64,000 bases of DNA from Escherichia phage JEP6, in the sequence record MT764206.1. One strand, 5' to 3'. The notes beneath the pieces are model-generated. The model was not told where the DNA came from. It did no database searches and saw only the letters and a program-made list of their open reading frames with translations. How positions within the stretch are numbered: position 1 is the first letter of the stretch; the number at the start of each line of letters is the position of its first letter. Made by a program: the position numbers and the translations under genes. This document shows, piece after piece, positions 1-45,233 of this stretch.

Positions 1-249
1 AATTACACACAGAGCATCTTTATATGGAGACAAGTAACGAATAAAATCTGAACGATTGTATTTTTCAATTAACTTGACACCAAGTTCTTCATCACAATTA
101 AAGAGTTTACCTGGAGAAATAAATTTCTCATCTTGGATCATTTTTAAAATATGTTCTAATGGAAGATTATATTTCTGAGCAAAATAAGGAAGACCTGATT
201 GCCAGCTTAAACATACTCCATCAATATCAGTTAAAATAGTAGGCTTCAT
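1..249 (-). CDS. HAD-like hydrolase family protein (T4 30.2-like); 3' end lies outside window
   Basis: Open frame from ATG 247-249 to window edge; N-terminal LTDIDGV motif typical of HAD phosphatases; start overlaps stop of next ORF. Confidence 0.5.
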   Translation of the reverse strand, partial: MKPTILTDIDGVCLSWQSGLPYFAQKYNLPLEHILKMIQDEKFISPGKLFNCDEELGVKLIEKYNRSDFIRYLSPYKDALCVI

Positions 250-1384: not shown

Positions 1385-1424
1385 AGTATTTTCCTCAATA
1401 GGGGGCCGAAGCCCCTGTTTTATT

Positions 1425-4065: not shown

Positions 4066-4646
4066 TATTCACCACAGAATTCGTTGATATTTTCCCAGTT
4101 TAACTTATTCAAGTTTTTCTTAGGAACATTAAACACTTCAATACCCGCATTTCGCAGAATATCATCCCAGCCAGGTTTATTTTTATCGTATGTTTCGCAA
4201 TAAACCAGCTTTTTAATTCCAGATTGAGCTATTGCTTTTGCACAATCTGGGCAAGGAGAAAGTGTTACATACATAGTAGCACCTTCAATTGAAGAACCGT
4301 TTCGTGCAGCAAACAAAATCGCATTTAGTTCAGCATGAATTTCATTTTTAGACGACCATTCAGAGTGAGCACTACGATGTTCTTTCGCCAAGACAAAACG
4401 ATCAGTTGAACCAAATGATACGCATTCAGGCTTATGACCTTGAATGATAGTATGTTTAGGCTTATTCAACAACCAACCTTGCTCAGCAGCATAATCACAG
4501 CAGTTCACTCCCCCTGCGGGTGAACCATTATACCCAGTAGAAATAATACGTCCATTCTTTTCAATTACTGCTCCTACCTTCCAGGAGCAACATTTTGATT
4601 CCTGCGATACTAAATATGCAATTTGAAGTACTGTACTCGCTTTCAT
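4065..4646 (-). CDS. cd: dCMP deaminase
   Basis: 193 aa; HAE...PCPDC zinc-binding deaminase motifs. Confidence 0.9.
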   Translation of the reverse strand: MKASTVLQIAYLVSQESKCCSWKVGAVIEKNGRIISTGYNGSPAGGVNCCDYAAEQGWLLNKPKHTIIQGHKPECVSFGSTDRFVLAKEHRSAHSEWSSKNEIHAELNAILFAARNGSSIEGATMYVTLSPCPDCAKAIAQSGIKKLVYCETYDKNKPGWDDILRNAGIEVFNVPKKNLNKLNWENINEFCGE

Positions 4647-4981
4647 TTCATAATCACCAGATAAGCAGATTTAGCAGTTTCAACACGATAAATTTCGTGA
4701 CGAAGTTTAGTTATACTTTTAATAACAGAACTAATTATATTCTGCCCGTCTTTAAAGCGGTTTTTCTTATCAATAAAAACTGCGCCAGTCATCTTTTTGT
4801 GAAGCTCAACTGGATACTTCGTCACAATAATAGCATCATACACAGAAGGATGAATACTATTCACCAGAGTATCATTCATTAAAGTTATTCTAATGAACTT
4901 TGCTGTTTCAGAATCAAGCGCTCTATGATCACCAGTATCATTTTCAAGACAATTATCAATTATATCAGTTAAATTCATCAT
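4643..4981 (-). CDS. hypothetical protein
   Basis: 112-aa ORF. Confidence 0.5.
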   Translation of the reverse strand: MMNLTDIIDNCLENDTGDHRALDSETAKFIRITLMNDTLVNSIHPSVYDAIIVTKYPVELHKKMTGAVFIDKKNRFKDGQNIISSVIKSITKLRHEIYRVETAKSAYLVIMK

Positions 4982-5214
4982 AGTACGCCATACACCCTTT
5001 GTGCTTCAACTAATCCATCAAAATCCAGTTTAAGATGCGATATTTGATCGCCATCACCTGGATTCACAATTACTAATACTGAACGAGGAGTTTCGGTAAT
5101 AACACGAACCGATGTTTCAGGAAATCGTTCAGAAACCTTATTTACTAATTCCTGTGCAAATAGTTTAACTTTTTCTTGGAATTCTTTAACAGTAATTGGT
5201 TTTTCACTTAGCAT
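4978..5214 (-). CDS. hypothetical protein
   Basis: 78-aa ORF. Confidence 0.5.
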   Translation of the reverse strand: MLSEKPITVKEFQEKVKLFAQELVNKVSERFPETSVRVITETPRSVLVIVNPGDGDQISHLKLDFDGLVEAQRVYGVL

Positions 5215-5735
5215 GTTGATCCCAGCTCCTTACTTTCAACGTTTTTAACTAATTTGACAGAAACTAATTCAGCATCTTGAGTAATCATTACCGGACCTTC
5301 TTCATACTCTTCAAGATATTCTAGAGCTTTCTTTTTAGCTTCTTCCTTCGTATCAGTTTGAGCATAGATATAAAACATACAACCAGTAATACCTACTACT
5401 TTCCACTTAATTTCTTTATCAGCTTTAATTTCAAATTTACTGACAGAATCATCTTTTTGAACTTCTTCGAAAAAAGAATATTCTAACATATAAGCAATTG
5501 AAAATAACGGGCTATCTTTATAGGATTCGCCCATTACATCAATAGCTTTATACCAGCAGTCATCAATTTTGCGTTTAATGCTAATAACATTCTTTGCAGG
5601 GTCAATTTTTACTTTAAATGAATTTTCCCCAATAAACTGGGAAATTCGTTTATTAGCCCCGCAAGTTTCATTAAAAATATCTTTATATCCAGTTTTAAAG
5701 CGATAAACCTTATCTTCTTCAAACCATTCGCTCAT
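5208..5735 (-). CDS. hypothetical protein
   Basis: 175-aa ORF with early promoter upstream. Confidence 0.5.
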   Translation of the reverse strand: MSEWFEEDKVYRFKTGYKDIFNETCGANKRISQFIGENSFKVKIDPAKNVISIKRKIDDCWYKAIDVMGESYKDSPLFSIAYMLEYSFFEEVQKDDSVSKFEIKADKEIKWKVVGITGCMFYIYAQTDTKEEAKKKALEYLEEYEEGPVMITQDAELVSVKLVKNVESKELGSTC

Positions 5736-8777: not shown

Positions 8778-10365
<1,588 letters not shown>

Positions 10366-22349: not shown

Positions 22350-22357
22350 TATAAATA
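22350..22357 (+). promoter_or_regulatory. late promoter TATAAATA for gene 34
   Basis: Exact TATAAATA 35 bp upstream of gene 34 ATG. Confidence 0.7.
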
Positions 22358-22391: not shown

Positions 22392-25300
22392 ATGGCCGAG
22401 ATTAAAAGAAAGTTCAGAGCAGAAGACGGTCTGGACGCAGGTGGCGATAAAATAATCAACGTAGCTTTAGCTGATCGTACCGTAGGAACTGACGGTGTTA
22501 ACGTTGATTACTTAATTCAAGAAAACACAGTTCAACAATATGATCCAACTCGTGGATATTTAAAAGATTTTGTAATCATTTATGATAACCGCTTTTGGGC
22601 TGCTATAAATGATATTCCAAAACCAGCAGGAGCTTTTAATAGCGTACGTTGGAGAGCATTACGTACTGATGCTAATTGGACAACTGTTTCATCAGGACCT
22701 TATCAATTAAAGTCAGGCGAATCAATTTCAGTTGATACTGCAGCTGGTAATGACATTACATTTACTTTACCATCTTCTCCAATTGATGGAGATACTATCG
22801 TTCTTCAAGATATTGGTGGAAAACCTGGTGTTAACCAAGTTTTAATTGTAGCTCCAGTGCAAAGTATTGTAAACTTTAGAGGTGAACAGGTACGTTCAGT
22901 ACTAATGACTCATCCAAAGTCACAGCTAGTTTTAATTTTTAGTAATCGTCTGTGGCAAATGTATGTCGCTGATTATAGTAGAGAAGCTGTAGTTGTAACG
23001 CCTGCGAGTCTCTATCAGGCGCAATCAAACGATTTTATCGTACGTAGATTTACTTCTGCTGCACCAATTAATGTTAAACTTCCAAGATTTGCTAATCATG
23101 GCGATATTATTAATTTCGTCGATTTAGATAAACTAAATCCGCTTTATCATACAATTGTTACTACATACGATGAAACGACTTCAATACAAGAAGTTGGAAC
23201 TCATTCCATTGAAGGCCGTACAACAATTGACGGTTTCTTGATGTTTGATGATAATGAGAAATTGTGGAGATTGTTTGACGGGGATAGTAAAGCGCGTTTA
23301 CGCATTATAACGACTAATTCTAATATTCGTCCAAATGAAGAAGTTATGGTATTTGGTGCGAATAACGGAACAGCTCAGACAATTGAACTTCAGCTTCCGA
23401 CTGATATTTCTGTTGGTGATACTGTCAAAATTTCCATGAATTACATGAGAAAAGGACAAACAGTTAAAATCAAAGCTGCCGGTGAAGATAAAATTGCTTC
23501 TTCAGTTCAATTGCTGCAATTCCCAAAACGCTCAGAATATCCACCTGAAGCTGAATGGGTGACTGTTCAAGAATTAGTTTTTAACGGCGAAACTAATTAT
23601 GTTCCAGTTTTACAGCTTGCTTATATAGAAGATTCTGATGGAAAATATTGGGTTGTACAGCAAAACGTTCCAACCGTAGAAAGAGTTGATTCTTTAAATG
23701 ATTCTACTAGAGCAAGATTAGGCGTAATTGCTTTAGCTACACAAGCTCAAGCTAATGTCGATTTAGAAAATTCTCCACAAAAAGAATTAGCAATTACTCC
23801 AGAAACGTTAGCTAATCGTACTGCTACAGAAACTCGTAGAGGTATTGCAAGAATAGCAACTACTGCTCAAGTGAATCAGAACACCACATTCTCTTTTGCT
23901 GATGATATTATCATCACTCCTAAAAAGCTGAATGAAAGAACTGCTACAGAAACTCGTAGAGGTGTTGCTGAAATTGCTACACAGCAAGAAACTAACGCAG
24001 GTACTGATGATACTACAATCATCACTCCTAAAAAGCTTCAAGCTCGTCAAGGTTCTGAGTCATTATCTGGTATTGTAACTTTTGTATCTACTGCAGGTGC
24101 TACTCCAGCTTCTAGCCGTGAATTAAATGGTACGAATGTTTATAATAAAAACACTAATAATTTAGTTGTTTCGCCTAAAGCACTGGATCAGTATAAAGCT
24201 ACTCCAACGCAACAAGGTGCAGTAATTTTAGCAGTTGAAAGTGAAGTAATTGCTGGACAAAGCCAAGAAGGATGGGCAAATGCGGTTGTAACGCCAGAAA
24301 CGTTACATAAAAAGACATCAACTGATGCAAGAATTGGTTTAATTGAAATTGCTACGCAAAGTGAAGTTAATACAGGAACTGATTATACTCGCGCAGTCAC
24401 TCCTAAAACTTTAAATGACCGTAGAGCAACTGAAAGTTTAAGTGGTATAGCTGAAATTGCTACGCAAGTTGAATTCGACGCAGGCGTCGACGATACTCGT
24501 ATCTCTACACCATTAAAAATTAAAACTAGATTTAACAGTACTGATCGTACTTCTGTTGTTGCTCTATCTGGATTAGTTGAATCAGGAACTCTCTGGGACC
24601 ATTATACCCTTAATATTCTTGAAGCAAATGAGACACAACGTGGTACACTTCGTGTGGCTACGCAAGTTGAAGCTGCTGCTGGAAAATTAGATAATGTTTT
24701 AATAACTCCTAAAAAGCTTTTAGGTACTAAATCTACTGAAGCACAAGAAGGTGTTATTAAAGTTGCAACTCAGTCTGAAACTGTGACTGGAACATCAGCA
24801 AATACTGCTGTATCTCCGAAAAATTTAAAATGGATCGTGCAGAGCGAACCTACTTGGGCAGCTACTACTGCAGTAAGAGGCTTTGTTAAAACTTCATCTG
24901 GTTCAATTACATTCGTTGGTAATGATACAGTCGGTTCTACCCAAGATTTAGAACTGTATGAGAAAAATAGCTATGCAGTATCACCATATGAATTAAACCG
25001 TGTATTAGCAAATTATTTGCCGTTAAAAGCAAAAGCTGTAGATAGTAATTTACTGGATGGTCTAGATTCATCTCAGTTCATTCGTAGGGATATTGCACAA
25101 ACGGTTAATGGTTCACTAACCTTAACCCAACAAACGAATCTGAGTGCCCCTCTTGTATCATCTAGTACTGGTGAATTTGGTGGTTCATTGGCTGCTAACT
25201 CAACATTTACCATCCGTAATACAGGAGCCCCGACCAGTATCGTTTTCGAAAAAGGTCCTGCATCTGGCGCAAACCCGGCACAGTCAATGAGTATTCGTGT

Positions 25301-26261
25301 ATGGGGTAACCAGTTTAGCGGTGGAAGTAATACAAATCGTTCGACCGTGTTTGAAGTTGGTGATGAAACATCTTATCACTTTTATTCTCAACGCGATAAA
25401 GATGGTAATATAGCATTTAGCATTAATGGTACTGTAATGCCAATAAATGTGAATGCTTTAGGTTCTTTGAATGCGAATGGCGTTGCAACATTCGGTAGTT
25501 CAGTTACTGCTAATGGCGAATTTATCAGTAAATCGTCGAATGCTTTTAGAGCAATAAATGGAAATTACGGATTCTTTATTCGTAACGCTGGTAATGACAC
25601 CTATTTTATGCTCACTGCAGCCGGTGACCAAACTGGTGGATTTAATGCATTACGTCCATTATCAATTAATAATCAGTCCGGTCAAGTAACGATTGGTGAA
25701 AACTTAATCATTGCCAAAGGTGCTACTATAAATTCAGGTGGTTTAACTGTTAACTCTAGAATTCGTTCTCAGGGTACTAAAACATCTGATTTATATACTC
25801 GTGCGCCAACATCTGATACTGTAGGATTCTGGTCAATCGATATTAATGATTCAGCCACTTATAACCAGTTCCCGGGTTATTTTGAAATGGTTGAAAAAAC
25901 TAATGAAGTGACTGGGCTTCCATACTTAGAACGTGGCGAAGAGGTTAAATCTCCTGGTACGTTGACTCAGTTTGGTAACACACTTGATTCGCTTTACCAA
26001 GATTGGATTACTTATCCAACGACCCCAGAAGCACGCACCACTCGCTGGACACGCACATGGCAGAAAACCAAAAACTCTTGGTCAAGTTTTGTTCAGGTAT
26101 TTGATGGGGGTAACCCTCCTCAGCCATCTGATATCGGTGCTTTACCATCTGATAATGCTATAATGGGGAATCTTACTATTCGTGATTTCTTACGAATTGG
26201 TAATGTTCGCATTATTCCTGACCCAGTGAATAAAACGGTTAAATTTGAATGGGTTGAATAA
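22392..26261 (+). CDS. 34: long tail fibre proximal subunit gp34
   Basis: 1289 aa; late promoter TATAAATA 35 bp upstream; internal repeated sequence modules. Confidence 0.9.
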   Translation: MAEIKRKFRAEDGLDAGGDKIINVALADRTVGTDGVNVDYLIQENTVQQYDPTRGYLKDFVIIYDNRFWAAINDIPKPAGAFNSVRWRALRTDANWTTVSSGPYQLKSGESISVDTAAGNDITFTLPSSPIDGDTIVLQDIGGKPGVNQVLIVAPVQSIVNFRGEQVRSVLMTHPKSQLVLIFSNRLWQMYVADYSREAVVVTPASLYQAQSNDFIVRRFTSAAPINVKLPRFANHGDIINFVDLDKLNPLYHTIVTTYDETTSIQEVGTHSIEGRTTIDGFLMFDDNEKLWRLFDGDSKARLRIITTNSNIRPNEEVMVFGANNGTAQTIELQLPTDISVGDTVKISMNYMRKGQTVKIKAAGEDKIASSVQLLQFPKRSEYPPEAEWVTVQELVFNGETNYVPVLQLAYIEDSDGKYWVVQQNVPTVERVDSLNDSTRARLGVIALATQAQANVDLENSPQKELAITPETLANRTATETRRGIARIATTAQVNQNTTFSFADDIIITPKKLNERTATETRRGVAEIATQQETNAGTDDTTIITPKKLQARQGSESLSGIVTFVSTAGATPASSRELNGTNVYNKNTNNLVVSPKALDQYKATPTQQGAVILAVESEVIAGQSQEGWANAVVTPETLHKKTSTDARIGLIEIATQSEVNTGTDYTRAVTPKTLNDRRATESLSGIAEIATQVEFDAGVDDTRISTPLKIKTRFNSTDRTSVVALSGLVESGTLWDHYTLNILEANETQRGTLRVATQVEAAAGKLDNVLITPKKLLGTKSTEAQEGVIKVATQSETVTGTSANTAVSPKNLKWIVQSEPTWAATTAVRGFVKTSSGSITFVGNDTVGSTQDLELYEKNSYAVSPYELNRVLANYLPLKAKAVDSNLLDGLDSSQFIRRDIAQTVNGSLTLTQQTNLSAPLVSSSTGEFGGSLAANSTFTIRNTGAPTSIVFEKGPASGANPAQSMSIRVWGNQFSGGSNTNRSTVFEVGDETSYHFYSQRDKDGNIAFSINGTVMPINVNALGSLNANGVATFGSSVTANGEFISKSSNAFRAINGNYGFFIRNAGNDTYFMLTAAGDQTGGFNALRPLSINNQSGQVTIGENLIIAKGATINSGGLTVNSRIRSQGTKTSDLYTRAPTSDTVGFWSIDINDSATYNQFPGYFEMVEKTNEVTGLPYLERGEEVKSPGTLTQFGNTLDSLYQDWITYPTTPEARTTRWTRTWQKTKNSWSSFVQVFDGGNPPQPSDIGALPSDNAIMGNLTIRDFLRIGNVRIIPDPVNKTVKFEWVE
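23790..24800 (+). repeat. in-frame tandem sequence modules inside gene 34
   Basis: Six or more imperfect repeats of ITPKKL/ETL...ATETRRG...IATQ...; coding, not a repeat array. Confidence 0.5.
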
Positions 26262-26269
26262 GAGGTATT

Positions 26270-27388
26270 ATGGAAAAATTTATGGCAGAGTTTGGACAAG
26301 GATATGTCCAAACGCCATTTTTATCGGAAAGCAATTCAGTAAGATATAAAATAAGTATAGCGGGTTCTTGCCCGCTTTCTACTGCAGAAGGACCATACGT
26401 TAAATTTCAGGATAATCCTGTCGGAAGTCAAACATTTAGCGCAGGACTTCATTTAAGAGTTTTTGACCCTTCTACAGGAGCATTAGTTGATAGTAAGTCA
26501 TATGCTTTTTCGACTTCAAATGATACTACATCAGCTGCTTTTGTTAGTTTCATGAATTCTTTTTCAAACAACAGACTTGTTGCTATATTAACTAGCGGAA
26601 AGGTTAATTTTCCTCCTGAGGTAGTATCTTGGCTAAGAGCCGCGGGAACGTCTGCTTTTCCATCTGATTCTGTATTGTCAAGATTTGACGTATCATATGC
26701 TGCTTTTTACACTTCTTCTAAAAGAGCTATTGCATTGGAACATGTTAAACTAAGTAATAGAAAAAGCACAGATGACTATCAAACTATTTTAGATGTTGTA
26801 TTTGATAGTTTAGAAGACGTTGGAGCTACAGGATTTCCTAAAAGAACATACGAAAGCGTTGAGCAATTTATGTCAGCGGTTGGTGGAACTAATAACGAAA
26901 TTGCACGTCTACCAACTTCATCCGCGATAAGTAAACTTTCTGACTACAATTTAATTCCTGGCGATGTTCTTTATCTTAAAGCACAACTATATGCTGATGA
27001 AGATTTACTTGCTCTTGGAACTACTAATATATCCATTAGATTTTATAATGAATCTGATGGATATATTTCTTCAACGCACGCTGAGTTTACTGGACAAGCT
27101 GGGTCATGGGAATTAAAGGAAGATTATGTAGTTATTCCAGAAAATGCAGTAGGATTTACGATATATGCACAAAGAACTGCTCAAGCTGGTCAAGGTGGCA
27201 TGAGGAATTTAAGTTTTTCTGAAGTATCAAGAAATGGCGGAATTTCAAAACCTGCAGAATTTGGCGTCAATGGTATTCGAGTTAATTATGTCTGTGAATC
27301 TGCTTCACCTCCGGATATAATGGTACTTCCTACACAAGCATCGTCTAAAACTGGTAAAGTGTTTGGGCAAGAATTTAGAGAAGTATAA
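26270..27388 (+). CDS. 35: long tail fibre hinge protein gp35
   Basis: 372 aa. Confidence 0.85.
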   Translation: MEKFMAEFGQGYVQTPFLSESNSVRYKISIAGSCPLSTAEGPYVKFQDNPVGSQTFSAGLHLRVFDPSTGALVDSKSYAFSTSNDTTSAAFVSFMNSFSNNRLVAILTSGKVNFPPEVVSWLRAAGTSAFPSDSVLSRFDVSYAAFYTSSKRAIALEHVKLSNRKSTDDYQTILDVVFDSLEDVGATGFPKRTYESVEQFMSAVGGTNNEIARLPTSSAISKLSDYNLIPGDVLYLKAQLYADEDLLALGTTNISIRFYNESDGYISSTHAEFTGQAGSWELKEDYVVIPENAVGFTIYAQRTAQAGQGGMRNLSFSEVSRNGGISKPAEFGVNGIRVNYVCESASPPDIMVLPTQASSKTGKVFGQEFREV

Positions 27389-27393
27389 ATTGA

Positions 27394-27420
27394 GGGAGCC
27401 TTCGGGTTCCCTTTTTCTTT
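27394..27420 (+). terminator. rho-independent terminator after gene 35
   Basis: Hairpin GGGAGCC-TTCG-GGTTCCC then TTTTTCTTT. Confidence 0.65.
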
Positions 27421-27427
27421 ATAAATA
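27420..27427 (+). promoter_or_regulatory. late promoter TATAAATA for genes 36-37
   Basis: Exact TATAAATA 24 bp upstream of gene 36 ATG. Confidence 0.7.
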
Positions 27428-27450: not shown

Positions 27451-28128
27451 ATGGCTGATTTAAAAGTAGGTTCAACAACCGGAGGCTCTGTCATTTGGCA
27501 TCAAGGAAATTTTCCATTGAATCCAGCCGGTGACGATGTACTCTATAAATCATTTAAAATATATTCAGAATATAATAAACCACAAGCTGCTGATAACGAT
27601 TTCGTTTCTAAAGCTAATGGTGGCACATATTTAAACAAAGTATCATTTAATGCAGGTGTACAAATCCCGTTTTCTAAAGACGGCGTAATTCAAACAGGGA
27701 ACATTAATGGTATTTTTCCCGGAGTTGATGATGGGGCCGATTTTACAGCAAACAACCTAGATATCGTTTCTTGGTATGGTGTTGGATTTAAATCTTCATT
27801 AGGTAATTCAGGATATACGATATCCATTAATACTCGTACAGGCACAATTAATACTAAAGGCGGTGTTTACGCCTCTGGACAAGTTCGTTCAGACATGGCT
27901 GCACCTGTTGCGGTTAACGATCTTACTCGTAAAGATTATGTTGATGGAGCAATAAATATTGTTACAGCAAACGCAAACTCTAGGGTATTACGCTCTGGAG
28001 ACACTATGACAGGAAATTTAACTGCGCCAAACCTTTTTTCACAGAATCCTGCATCTCAACCCTCGCATGTTCCACGATTTGACCAAATCGTAATTAAGGA
28101 TTCTGTTCAAGATTTCGGCTATTATTAA
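27451..28128 (+). CDS. 36: long tail fibre distal connector gp36
   Basis: 225 aa; own late promoter upstream. Confidence 0.85.
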   Translation: MADLKVGSTTGGSVIWHQGNFPLNPAGDDVLYKSFKIYSEYNKPQAADNDFVSKANGGTYLNKVSFNAGVQIPFSKDGVIQTGNINGIFPGVDDGADFTANNLDIVSWYGVGFKSSLGNSGYTISINTRTGTINTKGGVYASGQVRSDMAAPVAVNDLTRKDYVDGAINIVTANANSRVLRSGDTMTGNLTAPNLFSQNPASQPSHVPRFDQIVIKDSVQDFGYY

Positions 28129-28136
28129 GAGGACTT

Positions 28137-31100
28137 ATGGCTACTTTAAAACAAATACAATTTAAAAGAAGCAAAACTGCAGGAGCACGTCCTGCCGCTT
28201 CAGTATTAGCCGAAGGTGAATTGGCTATAAACTTAAAAGACCGTGTACTTTTTACTAAAGATGACCAGGGAAATATTATTGATTTAGGTTTTGCTAAAGG
28301 CGGTAGTATTGACGGGAATGTTATTCATACAGGCAATTATAACCAAACTGGCGATTATACTTTAAATGGCGTCTTCACTCAGACTGGTAATTTTAATTTA
28401 ACTGGTATTGCTCGAGTAACTCGTGATATTATTGCTGCTGGGCAGATTATGACTGAAGGCGGAGAACTTATTACAAAAAGTTCAGGAACGGCACACGTTC
28501 GTTTTCATGATTCCGCCGACCGTGAACGCGGTATTATTTTTTCTCCTGCTAATGACGGTTTAACTACACAAGTAGTTAACATCAGAGTTCAAGATTACAA
28601 AGCTGGTTCAGAAAGCACTTTCGCTTTTAATGGAAATGGTTTGTTTTCTTCACCAGAAGTTTTTGGGTGGAAATCTGTATCAACTCCGGTAATTTATACC
28701 AATAAAGTTATCACCAATAAAAAAGTTAAAGATGATTATGACATCTATTCGATGGCAGACAATGTTCCAATATCTGAAAGCACTACTGCTATTAATCATC
28801 TTCGTGTCATGCGTAATGCCGTTGGTTCTGCTGTTTTCCATGAAGTTAAAGATAGTGATGGAATAACTTGGTATACAGGTAACGGGTTAGATACCTATCT
28901 TTGGTCGTTTACCTGGTCCGGTGGATTGAAAGCCGGTCATTCTATTTCTGTAGGCGCCCCAGGCGGCCCCAAAGGATATTCTGAATTAGGAACGGCCTCA
29001 ATTGTTCTTGGGGATAATGACACCGGGTTAAAATGGCACCAGGACGGATATTATTTCAGCGTTAATAATGGAACAAAAACGTTTTTATTTAGTCCAAGCG
29101 AAACAACTAGTCTAAGAAAATTTGTAGCTGGATATTCTACTAACGGAAGCGATTTAACTACTCCTCCAACTGAAAATTATGCTCTTGCTACTGTAGTGAC
29201 ATACCATGATAATAACGCGTTTGGGGATGGTCAGACTCTTTTAGGATATTATCAAGGCGGTAACTATCATCATTATTTCCGCGGCAAAGGTACTACAAAC
29301 ATTAATACTCATGGCGGTTTGTTGGTTACTCCTGGTAATATTGACGTTATTGGTGGTTCTGTTAATATCGATGGTAGAAATAATGCTTCTACACTGATGT
29401 TTAGAGGTAACACAACAGGTAGTAGTTCTGTGGATAACATGACAATTTCTGTGTGGGGTAATACATTTACTAATCCTAGCGAAGGTAATCGCAAAAATGT
29501 CATGGAAATTTCCGATGCAACTAGCTGGATGAGCTATATTCAAAGACTTACTACCGGTGAAGTAGAAATGAACGTCAATGGTTCATTTGAATCATCGGGT
29601 GTTACTGCTGGAAATAGAGGAGTTCATACAACAGGCGAAATTTCATCTGGAGCGGTGAATGCGCTTCGCATTTGGAACGCAGATTATGGAGCCATTTTCC
29701 GTCGTTCAGAAAACAGTCTTCATATTATTCCGACTGCTTACGGTGAAGGCAAAAATGGCAATATCGGTCCACTTCGTCCGTTTAGCATGGCTTTAGATAC
29801 AGGTAAGGTCGTTATTCCTGATTTAGATTTAAGTTATGCTTCTTTTGCCGCAAATGGTTATATTAAATTCGGCGGTCATGGAGCTGGGGCTGGAGGTTAT
29901 GCCGTTCAATATGCTCAAGCGGCTCCTATTTTCCAGGAAATTGATGATGATGCTGTAAGCAAATATTATCCTATTGTTAAACAGAAATTCTTAAACGGTA
30001 AAGCAGTTTGGTCTTTAGGTACTGAAATTAATTCTGGTACATTCGTTATTCATCATCTGAAAGAAGATGGTTCACAAGGCCATACGTCTCGTTTTAATCA
30101 AGACGGTACTGTTAATTTCCCTGATAATGTTCAGGTTGGCGGTGGTGAAGCTACTATTGCTAGAAATGGTAATATTTTTTCTGATATTTGGAAATCGTTT
30201 ACTTCAGCAGGAGACACCACAAACATTCGCGATGCGATAGCTACTCGTGTTGCCAAAGAAGGCGATACGATGACTGGCAAATTAATCGTTAAAAGAGGCT
30301 CTGACGCTATTAACATTGCTGCCGATGAAAATGATTCTGCTTATTTACTTGGAACATCGGGTGGAGCGAATTCGTGGTACATCGGTAAAGGCGGGGCAGA
30401 TGACACTGCTTCATTTTATAATTTTAAGACTACGGCAGGAATTACTCTTAATAATGTAGGCGATATTGATTTTAATGTTAAAAATCAAGCTACTGCAGCT
30501 TCATTAAATTTTTATCGTTTATATTTAAACGGAAGACAGTGGACAGCTACCCAAGGCCACGGTTACGGAAACCAATGGCAAACAGAAGCCCCATTCTTCG
30601 TTGATTTTGGTGAATCTGTTCCAAAAGATAGTTATATGCCTATAATTAAAGGAAGAAGCCAAATCATTAATGAAGGATATGCAACAAAGGTAGATTTTGG
30701 TATTGTTCGATTAGGTGGAAATGCTGCTTGGGGAAATGCAGTAATTCGTGTTGGTTCTGCAGAAAGCGGAGATAGCCCTCATCCTAATGCAATATTTGAG
30801 TTTCAGGCTAATGGAGATTTTAAAGCTCCGGTTGGTCTTCGTGCTGGTGTTAACTTAGCTGTTGGTACTGATCCTATTTTTGGTGGACCTTCTATTGCCA
30901 TCGGTGATAATGACACTGGTTTAGTATGGGGTGGTGATGGTCGTATTAACATGCTTGCCGATGGTGTTCATATTGCGTCATGGGGGTCTCAACGTCTGGC
31001 ACATGAGGGGTTATGGGATTCATACGGGTCGTTTTGGACAGAAGTCGGTAAAGCGATTGTTTCACATGGCCATTTAGTCCAACAGGGTGATGCCTATTCT

Positions 31101-31463
31101 ACCTTTGTTCGTGATGTTTATGTCCGTTCTGATATTCGTGTTAAAAAAGACCTTGTTAAATTTGAAAATGCTTCTGAGAAGCTTTCTAAAATTAACGGTT
31201 ACACTTATATGCAGAAGCGAGGCCTAGATGAAGAAGGCAATCAGAAATGGGAACCTAACGCTGGTTTGATAGCTCAAGAAGTTCAAGCTATTTTGCCAGA
31301 ATTAGTTGAAGGTGACCCTGATGGTGAAGCTTTACTTCGTTTGAACTATAACGGTGTAATTGGTTTAAATACAGCTGCAATCAATGAGCATACTGCAGAA
31401 ATTGCAGAACTTAAATCAGAAATCGAAGAACTTAAAGCATTAGTTAAATCATTGTTAAAATAA
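28137..31463 (+). CDS. 37: long tail fibre distal subunit gp37 with C-terminal intramolecular-chaperone-like domain
   Basis: 1108 aa; C-terminal ~110 aa show SDIRVKKD...GLIAQEV...coiled-coil pattern typical of self-cleaving chaperone domains. Confidence 0.85.
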
Positions 31464-31494
31464 TAAGAGGGGCTTCGGCCCCTTGGAGGTTTAT

Positions 31495-32289
31495 ATGGCA
31501 GTAGCAGGACCGTGGATAGGAACTTCTGCATTGGCACAGACTGGAGACCATTGGATGGCAGGAGCAGCCGCAAGATTAAGAATGGGAGTTCCATTTTGGA
31601 TGAGTAATATGATAGGTCGATCCGTTGAAGTAATTCATACACTTGGAGCAGACCATAACTTTAATGGTCAATGGTTCCGAGATAGATGTTTTGAGGCAGG
31701 TAGTGCACCTATAGTGTTTAATATCACAGGAAATTTGGTATCATATTCTAGAGATGTTCCTTTATTCTTCATGTATGGAGATACACCAAATGAATATGTT
31801 CAGTTGAATATTAGCGGTGGAGCTCATATGTGGGGCAGAGGTGGACAAGGTGGATGGACTCATTCTGGTGGAGATGGTAATGGTCAACAGGGTGGACATT
31901 GTATTCAAAATGACATTGGTGGTCGATTAAGAATTAATAATGGTGGAGTAATTTGTGGCGGTGGTGGCGGTGGTGGCGGTATCGCTTATCGTCCTCACTC
32001 TGGCGCAAGGTGGCAAGATATTGGTGGCGGTGGAGGAAGACCATTTGGCCCAGGAGGAGGCGGAGGTTATTCCGGTGGCGCAGCTTCTTATGATGGCCCA
32101 GGAGGTGGTTATAATTATGGTAATGCTCACTCTGGCCAGGGTGGTGATGCTGGCGCAAATGGACAAAATGCCTGGCGTTATGGCGGTAAAGTTCTAAAAG
32201 TTGGAGCTGGTGGCGCTGCCGGATATGCTGTTATAGGATCAGCTCCAACATGGCAAAATGTTGGAGCAATATATGGTCCAAGAGTATAA
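31495..32289 (+). CDS. 38: gp38 receptor-recognising adhesin (glycine-rich, T2 type)
   Basis: 264 aa from ATG preceded by GGAGG (ORF track used upstream TTG); multiple poly-Gly stretches separating short variable segments. Confidence 0.75.
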
Positions 32290-32319: not shown

Positions 32320-32976
32320 ATGGCAGCACCTAGAATATCATTTTCGCCCTCTGATATTCTGTTGGGTGTTCTAGATCGCTTGTTCAAAGATAACGCTACC
32401 GGGAAGGTTCTTGCTTCCCGAGTAGCTGTCGTAATTCTTTTATTTATGATGGCGATTGTTTGGTATAGGGGAGATAGTTTCTTTGAGTACTATAAGCAAT
32501 CAAAGTATGAAACATACAGTGAAATTATTGAAAAGGAAAGAAATGCACGCTTTGAATCTGTCGCCCTGGAACAACTCCAAATAGTTCATATATCATCTGA
32601 GGCAGACTTTAGTGCGGTGTATTCTTTCCGCCCTAAAAACTTAAACTATTTTGTTGATATTATAGCATACGAAGGAAAATTACCTTCAACAATAAATGAA
32701 AAATCACTTGGAGGATATCCTGTTGATAAAACTATGGATGAATATACAGTTCATTTAAATGGACGTCATTATTATTCCAATTCAAAATTTGCTTTTTTAC
32801 CAACTAAAAAGCCTACTCCCGAAATAAACTACATGTACAGTTGTCCATATTTCAATTTGGATAATATCTATGCTGGAACAATAACCATGTACTGGTATAG
32901 AAATGATCATATAAGTAATGACCGCCTTGAATCAATATGTGCTCAGGCGGCCAGAATATTAGGAAGGGCTAAATAA
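32320..32976 (+). CDS. t: holin
   Basis: 218 aa; single TM segment near N-terminus; recognised T4 T sequence. Confidence 0.85.
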   Translation: MAAPRISFSPSDILLGVLDRLFKDNATGKVLASRVAVVILLFMMAIVWYRGDSFFEYYKQSKYETYSEIIEKERNARFESVALEQLQIVHISSEADFSAVYSFRPKNLNYFVDIIAYEGKLPSTINEKSLGGYPVDKTMDEYTVHLNGRHYYSNSKFAFLPTKKPTPEINYMYSCPYFNLDNIYAGTITMYWYRNDHISNDRLESICAQAARILGRAK

Positions 32977-43904: not shown

Positions 43905-44246
43905 CTGGCTCATCCATTCTTTACGAAGGTCAGCATTATCTCCCATGAGCATTTCAAAAAGCTCTTTCCAGTTCTCAGGAAGTTTAACAACATCATAAAC
44001 TGGGTTCTGAATCATTTCACGGTATTCAGATTTTTCCAAAGAGCCAAGTCCCTTAATATAACGGATGCTATGTTTAGGTAGAGCATCTTTGGCACTCTCA
44101 TATTCAGCGACTGTATAAAACCATTCTTGTTTTTTACCGACCTGAGCGATGATTACAGGAGTTTTGACAAAGCGAATTCTTCCTTGTTCAAACAGTTCTG
44201 GCCAATTACTAAAAAATCCGAGCAGAGAAGGATAAATAGAACCTAA
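43902..44246 (-). CDS. 60: topoisomerase II small subunit gp60, segment after translational bypass (codons 47-160)
   Basis: Frame resumes with TTA GGT (LGSIYPSL...) after landing GGA; ends ...KEWMSQ TAG. Confidence 0.85.
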   Translation of the reverse strand, partial: LGSIYPSLLGFFSNWPELFEQGRIRFVKTPVIIAQVGKKQEWFYTVAEYESAKDALPKHSIRYIKGLGSLEKSEYREMIQNPVYDVVKLPENWKELFEMLMGDNADLRKEWMSQ

Positions 44247-44296
44247 TCCAATAATCTCTTAATTATGAGGTATTTCAATGGATAGCCCGAAGGCTA
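44247..44296 (-). other. 60: 50-nt translational bypass coding gap of gene 60
   Basis: Take-off GGA 44297-44299, TAG 44294-44296, hairpin CCTTCGGGCTATCC at 44281-44293, landing GGA 44247-44249. Confidence 0.85.
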
Positions 44297-44434
44297 TCCA
44301 TCGTGATCTGCGTCTGTCATAATAGCGACATTCGCATAGTTCATTGAAGAGGATTTAATAGAACGACGAACATTGTTCTGCGATTTATATTTTTTCATAT
44401 CAATGCTAGAAGAATCAATTTTTACAAATTTCAT
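44297..44434 (-). CDS. 60: gp60 segment before bypass (codons 1-46)
   Basis: MKFVKIDSSS...TDADHDG ending at take-off Gly46. Confidence 0.85.
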
Positions 44435-45233
44435 TATACACCTCGTAGAACTTTTCATCAGGAATCCAGCCGCGTTTAAATTCATTAAATGCTCGGCCGA
44501 ATAATTTTGAATTCACAGTTATATTATTAACTGATTTCCATTTAGCAACTCCCGTTCGTTTATAATGATCGGGGTCATATTTCGTGACGTACCATTCATA
44601 TAAATTTGGTATTAATTTTACAGCCTCTGGATTTGTCGCTGATTTATTATACCATGGTTTCGCTTTTTCAAGTTCAGCTGCTTTTGCAGTAGCAGCAACA
44701 GTATTTCCAATACCAACTAATTTTTCAGCTTTAATGCGTGGATCATTAACATGAAGACGAAAAACTTCGCCTTTTTCATTTTTAAAGCATGTCATGCCTT
44801 TAATTCCAGGAAGCTTAACACCTTTATTAACACCGCACCATTCCTTTGGGTTAAATGATCCTTTAATTAATAAGGCGCATTTACCCGATTTAATACTTCT
44901 CATTAAAACTTTATCTTTCATAAAGTTTTTTGACCATTCAGATACTGCTCTTTGATGGTAAATTCTAGCAATTTCATATAATTTACTAGAACGTAAATAT
45001 TTTTCAGTGTTTAACATTCTATTCATCGCATATGCCATTTCACGATTACGATGAATTTTATATAGTAGAAAATGTGCTAAAAAGTGTTCACGAAAAGTCA
45101 GTTTCACCAAATTTTCTTTATCATCAGAACCTCCCATTGATCTTGGAAGGATATGGTGAATTTCACCCTTAAATTTAGAAACGCGGGTTTTACCCCGCAC
45201 TATTAAGTCATTATAGATTTTTTCGTAATTCAC
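44415..45233 (-). CDS. mobA: HNH homing endonuclease, Mob family
   Basis: 272 aa; HHILPRSMGGSDDKENLV motif shared with mobE; wedged between genes 39 and 60 with short overlaps. Confidence 0.75.
   Translation of the reverse strand: MNYEKIYNDLIVRGKTRVSKFKGEIHHILPRSMGGSDDKENLVKLTFREHFLAHFLLYKIHRNREMAYAMNRMLNTEKYLRSSKLYEIARIYHQRAVSEWSKNFMKDKVLMRSIKSGKCALLIKGSFNPKEWCGVNKGVKLPGIKGMTCFKNEKGEVFRLHVNDPRIKAEKLVGIGNTVAATAKAAELEKAKPWYNKSATNPEAVKLIPNLYEWYVTKYDPDHYKRTGVAKWKSVNNITVNSKLFGRAFNEFKRGWIPDEKFYEVYNEICKN

Follow-up and report, generated by a model that had tools for sequence, protein, structure and literature searches.

The gp37-gp38 locus of Escherichia phage JEP6 matches the distal tip module of T2/S16-type long tail fibres

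We analysed a 64,000-nt stretch (hereafter the window) of Escherichia phage JEP6, a T4-like myovirus from pig faeces with a 170,340-bp genome. Two neighbouring plus-strand genes encode gp37 (positions 28137-31463, 1108 aa), which ends in a Peptidase_S74 chaperone domain, and, directly downstream of its stop codon, gp38 (31495-32289, 264 aa counted from the ATG at 31495, with 32289 as the last base of the stop codon) (Table 1). Their sequences are identical to the JEP6 deposits QOC55167.1 and QOC55168.1 (genome MT764206). GenBank labels each of the two just 'tail fibers protein'. The same layout, an S74-chaperone-bearing gp37 followed by gp38, is found in T2, T6, HY03, wV7 and AV119, and T4 has the same long-tail-fibre operon position, with the flanking genes 36 and t common to T4 and JEP6. 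A gp38 start at TTG 31483, which would give 268 aa, was ruled out because it falls within the hairpin's 3' arm, upstream of the Shine-Dalgarno sequence GGAGG at 31485-31489, and because every annotated homologue begins at MAV.

Table 1 Features of the JEP6 gp37-gp38 locus, in window coordinates.
Feature	Positions	Strand	Basis
T4-type late promoter motif TATAAATA	27420..27427	+	upstream of gp36
Mature gp37, distal long-tail-fibre subunit, residues 1-997	28137..31127	+	ORF; phrog_1699 E=0; 6F45_A alignment
gp37 intramolecular chaperone, Peptidase_S74, residues 998-1108 (111 residues)	31128..31463	+	PF13884; 6F45_A; 7dc3; PHROGs
GGGGC-UUCG-GCCCC tetraloop hairpin	31469..31482	+	between gp37 stop and gp38 Shine-Dalgarno
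gp38 N-terminal attachment domain, residues 1-52	31495..31650	+	Gp38_N; W7, W20, W35
gp38 beta-helix and polyglycine-II sandwich specificity domain	31651..32289	+	PF05268; 9V85; 6F45_D
gp38 recognition loops: A ~121-129, B ~163-176, C ~189-193, D ~207-212, E ~227-233			mapped from PP01
gp38 codons 228-229, CGT TAT = Arg-Tyr (HY03 CAT GAT = His-Asp)	32176..32181	+	loop-E equivalent

In the whole window, the late promoter motif has just three plus-strand matches, at 9314, at 22350 (which lies upstream of gp34) and at 27420, and none of them falls between gp37 and gp38. The motif at 27420 is likely the start of a gp36-gp37-gp38 late transcript, an assignment that draws on its position and on knowledge of T4, since the number of motifs in the window is not above chance. 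The hairpin between the two genes has a minimum free energy of -14.1 kcal/mol (z=-1.3 against shuffled sequence, not significant alone) and is conserved in HY03 and wV7; given this z-score, we make no functional claim for it. It is annotated in G2133 as a putative terminator, and its minus strand likewise scores terminator-like.

We then considered gp37 from its shaft to its C-terminus. The protein matches the long tail fibre distal subunit family phrog_1699 (E=0), and its residues 922-997 can be aligned to the tip of S16 gp37 (6F45_A), the JEP6 tip being about 12 residues longer. The C-terminus aligns with the S16 tip construct 6F45_A over its full length (E=6e-45) and scores 48.5 bits against Peptidase_S74 (PF13884; cutoff 22, E=1.1e-12), where residues 998-1057 match positions 1-57 of the 58-position profile from S998 onward. 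A weak alignment was also obtained with the MYRF domain 7dc3, and the chaperone segment matches the extreme C-terminus of at least 25 different tail-fibre PHROGs. Its amino-acid sequence is identical in G2133 and PP01, and the domain terminates in a helix. The initial annotation, whose quoted protein strings are all present, had likened about 110 residues at the end of gp37 to self-cleaving chaperone domains; the family and structure matches bear out this resemblance, and the domain begins at residue 998 (nt 31128). The span it gave for the module, 31088-32289, ends correctly at the gp38 stop codon, whereas its start lies 40 nt upstream of the Ser998 codon and out of frame.

The boundary of this domain carries the features expected of an autocleavage site. 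Within SDIRVK, the serine is the first residue of the domain and the lysine stands 5 residues downstream, the same i/i+5 spacing as Ser1264/Lys1269 of T5 pb1; Ser998 is predicted to be the scissile or nucleophilic residue, with Lys1003 as its partner. SDIRVK also aligns with MYRF 7dc3, and the full motif DVYVR^SDIRVKK is S16-like, aligning with DLNVS^SDRRIKK, in which the pre-scissile residue is S in S16 and R in JEP6. The last 113 residues of S16 gp37 are autocleaved after trimerisation (cleavage motif from PMC7917993). The consensus VY[VI]RSDxRxK is kept in the gp37 proteins of T2 and T6, and the DVYVR strand that closes mature JEP6 gp37 is the predicted docking platform for gp38. We regard it as very improbable that the S74-like domain is never cut off and remains on the mature fibre as a structural cap, with gp38 bound elsewhere: both the scissile serine and its partner lysine are present at canonical spacing, the domain has the same amino-acid sequence as in PP01 and G2133 and is a homologue of the S16 domain, and autocleavage in S16 uncovers the gp38 docking surface. 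The T2 gp37, which reportedly sheds about 120 C-terminal residues in assembly, likewise argues for release of the domain.

Glycine makes up 26% of gp38 as a whole and 36% of its residues 120-264. The poly-Gly stretches noted at first sight in this 264-aa protein comprise eight glycines at 155-162 (the G8 run) and five at 177-181 (the G5 run). Pfam GP38 (PF05268) covers residues 45-264 (231 bits, E=1.6e-68, profile 1-218 of 218) and Gp38_N (PF21721) residues 1-40 (E=1.4e-19, profile 1-40 of 40), and phrog_2056, 'tail fiber protein; host specificity', matches with E=9e-110. Judged by profile score, the family assignments of gp37 and gp38 are not chance, since Peptidase_S74, GP38 and Gp38_N all score well above their curated Pfam thresholds; NCBIfam holds no model for either protein. 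Over its whole length gp38 matches the solved structures of the PP01 gp38 receptor-binding domain (9V85, E=7e-74) and of S16 gp38 (6F45_D, E=1e-50), and hits of this strength to known structures (E=1e-50 to 1e-74) settle the fold.

An alignment of 11 adhesins further showed which parts of gp38 are fixed. W7, W20 and W35 are invariant, the attachment role of these three tryptophans being taken from the S16 structure (PMC6851490), and residues 1-52 are 100% identical to G2133 and 83% identical to HY03. In the C-terminal domain, neither the G8 run nor the GGGGGRPFG motif varies among the 11 sequences (the invariant columns include G155-G161 and 177-185), and variation is concentrated between them, in keeping with the scheme of Trojet 2011, in which glycine-rich motifs alternate with hypervariable segments. 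As in JEP6, the gp37 of the S16 (gp37)3-gp38 complex (6F45) has a tip followed by a chaperone, which in S16 is autocleaved, and the S16 gp38 combines a three-tryptophan attachment domain with a beta-helix and a polyglycine-II sandwich that includes the G8 helix; the loops differ. The receptor of S16 is OmpC. T2 and T6 likewise share with JEP6 the gene order, the VY[VI]RSDxRxK chaperone and the glycine-motif gp38 scaffold, and again the gp38 loops differ. Their adhesins recognize FadL (T2) and Tsx (T6-like) according to Trojet et al.

According to published work, receptor contact in T4 is made by the tip of gp37 itself, and T4 gp38 is a chaperone of fibre assembly, unrelated to the adhesins, that virions lack. 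The gp38 orthologues of HY03 and wV7 carry the annotation 'distal long tail fiber assembly catalyst', and the JEP6 gene occupies the same place as T4 gene 38; both observations would fit a gp38 that merely catalyses gp37 assembly and is absent from the virion. We give this reading very little credence. JEP6 gp38 shares 46% identity with its T2 counterpart and 66-68% with that of T6, whereas no similarity to T4 gp38 was detectable by BLASTP (best E=0.79 over 20 residues), which speaks against a T4-type chaperone identity and agrees with the T2-type assignment made at the outset. The whole-length match to the Pfam GP38 adhesin, 6F45_D and 9V85 also tells against the assembly-catalyst reading, as does the intramolecular chaperone that gp37 itself possesses, whose S16 counterpart is reported to be autocleaved after trimerisation; the NC_000866 annotation itself calls the T2-subfamily 'gp38' an unrelated adhesin. 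The HY03 and wV7 database entries thus still mislabel the adhesin as an 'assembly catalyst'.

These results make it highly likely that the JEP6 locus encodes the module at the distal tip of a T2/S16-type long tail fibre and acts as proposed here, and they support the initial reading as essentially correct. From homology, motif conservation and gene order we infer cleavage, virion incorporation and receptor identity along the following lines. One late transcript would give gp36, gp37 and gp38. Three gp37 chains would trimerise, the 111-residue S74-type intramolecular chaperone nucleating the process from their C-terminal ends, and once the triple beta-helix has formed correctly, Ser998, activated by Lys1003, would cut the R997-S998 bond in each chain. 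The chaperone trimer would dissociate after the cut and expose the DVYVR tip. One gp38 monomer would cap this tip by means of the three-helix bundle at its N-terminus, whose W7, W20 and W35 would fit into three symmetry-related pockets. The C-terminal polyglycine-II sandwich would then present five variable loops that bind a receptor in the host outer membrane; OmpA is the most probable one, and LPS may contribute. On this proposal gp38 would sit at the fibre tip of the virion and determine host range, because its loops would be what binds the receptor.

We further compared the specificity domain with adhesins of known receptor. At the sequence level, OmpA is probably the receptor of JEP6 gp38, since this domain (aa 105-264) is 96% identical to that of RB32, 93% to AV119 and 92% to FL08, all OmpA users: the RB32 adhesin targets OmpA and LPS, and AV119 and FL08 are OmpA-dependent. 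Loops A-D are the same, or almost the same, as in these 'type 1' OmpA adhesins, and R166 and D218 are the conserved equivalents of R165 and D217, which have been highlighted for OmpA binding. Loop E differs, with R228/Y229 in JEP6 and H/D or S/D in RB32, AV119 and FL08. The JEP6 specificity domain departs from that of HY03 in H228R and D229Y alone, gene nt 130-795 being identical except for 2 nt. None of the 13 other listed members of the cluster whose sequences include the segment has the variant NAWRYGG (a further listed member, P0012, is partial and lacks the segment), and the Arg-Tyr loop-E variant had no match in IMG/VR or JGI metagenomes. A lone exact 21-mer match among genome contigs, in a Bacteroidales MAG, was dismissed as chance, its flanks being unrelated.

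The loop-E substitutions open the question of whether the architecture could be as proposed and the receptor be other than OmpA, either another porin such as OmpC or LPS, through H228R/D229Y or through ancestry among O157 phages. Two adjacent non-synonymous changes are the sole differences from HY03 over 666 nt, and they fall in the segment aligned with loop E of PP01, the loop reported to govern PP01 specificity and, with it, OmpC recognition. According to Trojet 2011, as few as 1-3 substitutions in hypervariable segments can shift or broaden receptor use in gp38 adhesins; moreover, HY03 and wV7, the nearest relatives, have O157 strains as isolation hosts, and the O157 phage PP01 uses OmpC. 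Set against this are the near-identity of loops A-D to those of RB32, AV119 and FL08 and the finding of Lutz et al. that closely related gp38 proteins share a receptor. In PP01, 16 of the 19 substitutions at loop-E Tyr230 are tolerated, and the PP01 loops are only 52% identical to those considered here. A receptor other than OmpA is on balance unlikely, though well within consideration, and OmpA stays our prediction. It is, similarly, a tentative idea that H228R/D229Y is a recent host-range adaptation that alters or broadens recognition (of OmpA variants, another porin or LPS); if so, it might contribute to the infection by JEP6 of B2 strains, the JEP6 paper reporting 3 of 4 phylogroup B2 strains infected.

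Finally, we considered the locus in its wider genomic context. The T4-type markers recognized earlier elsewhere in the window are present: a gene 60 bypass element occupies 44244-44299 of the minus strand and differs from its T4 counterpart by 2 mismatches, and the ORF adjoining it belongs to a segment that shares 98.6% identity with the part of T4T annotated with mobA and genes 60/39. The full mobA/gene 60 cassette occurs in 41 records. This cassette is reportedly itself a mobile homing element. The T2-type adhesin has been described as the predominant T-even form and T4 as the exception (PMC3157838, PMC6851490). T4 markers together with a T2 module are thus not unusual, at least nine other sequenced phages carrying both the mobA/gene 60 cassette and a T2-type gp38: ELT1, pSe_SNUABM_01, HY03, CE1, 215Ecol030PP, vB_EcoM_112, PD112, ZJUN4 and Manna. 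With a common adhesin, a mobile cassette and these precedents, the suggestion that a T2-type tip combined with mobA/gene 60 marks JEP6 as a notable mosaic is a weak argument and does not hold. The actual mosaicism is finer and lies within gp37 and gp38. The gp37 shaft is nearest to wV7, the gp37 tip to Manna, the chaperone and the gp38 N-terminus to G2133, and the gp38 specificity domain to HY03, whose gp38 differs from that of JEP6 at 22 positions in its first 129 nt.

The gp37-gp38 tip arrangement of JEP6 is a textbook one of the well-studied T2/S16 type and leaves the understanding of the system unchanged. JEP6 is part of a published biocontrol cocktail, and the OmpA prediction helps in picking partners with non-overlapping receptors, a practical value that is small. 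The locus also illustrates cleanly how modules are exchanged where gp37 meets gp38: three modules, the tip, the chaperone with the attachment domain, and the specificity domain, have three different nearest relatives.

The window is a genome segment of a T4-like (Tequatrovirus) phage, and its long-tail-fibre operon lies on the plus strand. An exact-sequence look-up matched gp37 to QOC55167.1 and gp38 to QOC55168.1, both from Escherichia phage JEP6, with no difference in sequence. JEP6 (MT764206) is a 170,340-bp myovirus that was isolated from pig faeces and has been included in a published phage cocktail targeting E. coli resistant to antimicrobials (PMC8425383). The centre of gp36 shared only ~57-61% nucleotide identity with HY03, wV7 and AV119, against 90-100% in its flanks, which suggests a further exchanged module within this fibre hinge protein. 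A Pfam Gp34_trimer match was found in gp37 (E=1.7e-8) and also at gp34 residues 981-1092, so this module is common to the proximal and distal fibre subunits.

Features of the JEP6 window and of the reference gp38 loci
Feature	Position	Strand	Length or extent	Annotation
gp34	22392-26261	+	1289 aa	
gp35	26270-27388	+	372 aa	
gp36	27451-28128	+	225 aa	
gp36 centre	27601-27900		~residues 51-150	
gp37	28137-31463	+	1108 aa	
Gp34_trimer match in gp37	29481-29786		residues 449-550	
gp37-gp38 hairpin	31469-31482	+		
gp38	31495-32289	+	264 aa	
holin t	32320-32976	+	218 aa	
Second hairpin copy	1402-1415	-		
Gene 60 bypass element	44244-44299	-		
ORF between gene 60 and gene 39	44415-45233	-	272 aa	
HY03 gp38 orthologue	L001 (HY03 reference locus) 4112-4906			distal long tail fiber assembly catalyst
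wV7 gp38 orthologue	L002 (wV7 reference locus) 4496-5290			distal long tail fiber assembly catalyst

The initial annotation had placed a T2-type receptor module at 31088-32289, and all the peptides that it quoted were found in the window. The end is the gp38 stop codon; the start should lie 40 nt further downstream and is not in frame. The gp37 C-terminal domain, put at ~110 residues, counts 111, with SDIRVKKDL beginning at residue 998 (nt 31128). Its proposed chaperone-like nature was borne out by a Peptidase_S74 match at residues 998-1057 (E=1.1e-12; 48.5 bits against a Pfam cutoff of 22 bits). The 111-residue segment matched the extreme C-terminus of at least 25 different tail-fibre PHROGs, as expected for a portable chaperone module. 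The gp37 C-terminus also matched the S16 gp37 tip construct 6F45_A (E=6e-45) and, weakly, the S74-type domain of MYRF (7dc3). In S16 gp37, the last 113 residues form an intramolecular chaperone that is autocleaved after trimerisation between the paired serines of DLNVS^SDRRIKK, exposing the gp38 docking surface (PMC7917993). The corresponding motif in the window is DVYVR^SDIRVKK, which places the predicted cleavage site between R997 and S998. VY[VI]RSDxRxK is common to gp37 of T2, T6, HY03, wV7 and AV119, and Ser998/Lys1003 have the same i/i+5 spacing as Ser1264/Lys1269 of T5 pb1.

The gp38 protein is glycine-rich, as first described (26% Gly overall, 36% in residues 120-264), with runs of G8 at 155-162 and G5 at 177-181. 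It matched Pfam GP38 over the full profile (E=1.6e-68) and Gp38_N (E=1.4e-19), and was assigned by PHROGs to 'tail fiber protein; host specificity' (E=9e-110). Structural matches were the PP01 gp38 receptor-binding domain 9V85 (E=7e-74) and, along the whole length, S16 gp38 (6F45_D, E=1e-50). Identity was 46% to T2 gp38 and 66-68% to T6 gp38, whereas T4 gp38 showed no similarity (E=0.79); these alignments support the reading of gp38 as a T2-type adhesin. The label 'distal long tail fiber assembly catalyst' describes the T4 function, and UFV phages carry an orthologue annotated 'tail protein and peptidase'; these names look like annotation carry-over errors for an adhesin. In S16 gp38, three tryptophans at N-terminal helix apices enter three symmetry-related pockets (PMC6851490); W7, W20 and W35 of the window gp38 were invariant in an 11-adhesin alignment. 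The PP01 receptor-recognition loops mapped to ~121-129 (A), ~163-176 (B), ~189-193 (C), ~207-212 (D) and ~227-233 (E).

Homology, motifs and gene order of the module are established by these results; cleavage of gp37, incorporation of gp38 into virions and receptor binding are inferred. The chaperone would be cut off at R997^S998 after trimerisation, exposing the docking surface as in S16; one gp38 would then cap the gp37 trimer, and a polyglycine-II sandwich built from its glycine-rich motifs would display the variable loops. This arrangement is well characterised, crystal structures are available, and the exact sequences are public.

The hairpin GGGGCTTCGGCCCC (C-UUCG-G tetraloop) is present in two copies. 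One of them separates the gp37 stop codon from the gp38 Shine-Dalgarno; it is conserved in both HY03 and wV7, and the G2133 annotation labels it a putative terminator. A T-rich run follows it on the minus strand, where its score is terminator-like, so early antisense transcripts could end there; tuning of the gp37:gp38 ratio is another possible role. The hairpin's fold did not differ significantly from shuffled sequence (z=-1.3).

The interpretation was supported except for the weight put on a mosaic of T4 markers and a T2 module. That combination does not make the locus unusual: a gp38 query returned 924 phage records, 41 records contain the full mobA/gene 60 cassette, and at least nine phages among those 41 combine it with a T2-type gp38 (ELT1, pSe_SNUABM_01, HY03, CE1, 215Ecol030PP, vB_EcoM_112, PD112, ZJUN4 and Manna). 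T2/S16-type adhesins are described as the predominant form among T-even phages, T4 being the exception (PMC3157838, PMC6851490). Sequence comparison shows real mosaicism at a finer scale. In gp37, nt 30301-30900 were nearest to wV7 (83-95% per 150-nt window; HY03 and AV119, 51-62%) and the tip (nt 30879-31127) to Salmonella phage Manna (94.7%), and the chaperone (residues 998-1108) had the same amino-acid sequence as in G2133 and PP01. Residues 1-52 of gp38 were identical to G2133 (83% to HY03), and nt 130-795 of its gene were identical to HY03 except at two positions. Tétart et al. (1998) reportedly described exchange at conserved motifs in this locus. The finer mosaicism is of the kind already described for gp37/gp38, where such exchange has been reported (Trojet 2011, PMC3157838).

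In the cassette itself, which is 99.4% identical to ELT1 around the bypass, the gene 60 coding gap differs from the T4 query at two positions (GGCTATCCATTGAAAT versus GGCTATCTATAGAAAT in T4); the GGA-TAG take-off, CUUCGG hairpin and GGA landing site are intact. The neighbouring 272-aa ORF matched HNH weakly, at E=7e-4 and short of the Pfam threshold, and lies in a region 98.6% identical to one annotated with the mobA homing endonuclease in T4T. It appears intact, whereas mobA is annotated as a pseudogene in T4 record AF158101.

Across the specificity domain (residues 105-264), gp38 was 99% identical to HY03, 96% to RB32 and wV7, 93% to AV119 and 92% to FL08, compared with 57% to T6, 51-53% to PP01, G2133 and Manna, and 44% to T2. 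The adhesin of RB32 is directed at OmpA and LPS (PMC3157838). The 'type 1' phages AV119 and FL08 depend on OmpA, and the study of these two reports a shared receptor among closely related gp38 proteins (PMC12032242). R165 and D217, highlighted in AV119/FL08 gp38, are conserved as R166 and D218. Taken together, these similarities make OmpA the best prediction for the gp38 receptor, and probably the correct one. The two differences from HY03 (CAT GAT to CGT TAT) are adjacent and both non-synonymous, giving H228R and D229Y, and the other 664 nt of the segment held no synonymous change. Among listed cluster members, the 13 others covering this segment carry NAW[SH]DGG; one further member is partial and lacks it. 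The variant was absent from IMG/VR and JGI metagenomes. A 21-nt exact match to these codons in a Bacteroidales MAG contig (L012 5899-5919, JAZNGG010000012.1) was rejected as chance, since ~0.3 such matches are expected by chance in 596 Gb and the flanks of this unrelated contig are dissimilar. Both substitutions fall in the segment aligned with loop-E, which governs OmpC recognition by PP01, and H228R/D229Y may be a host-range adaptation.
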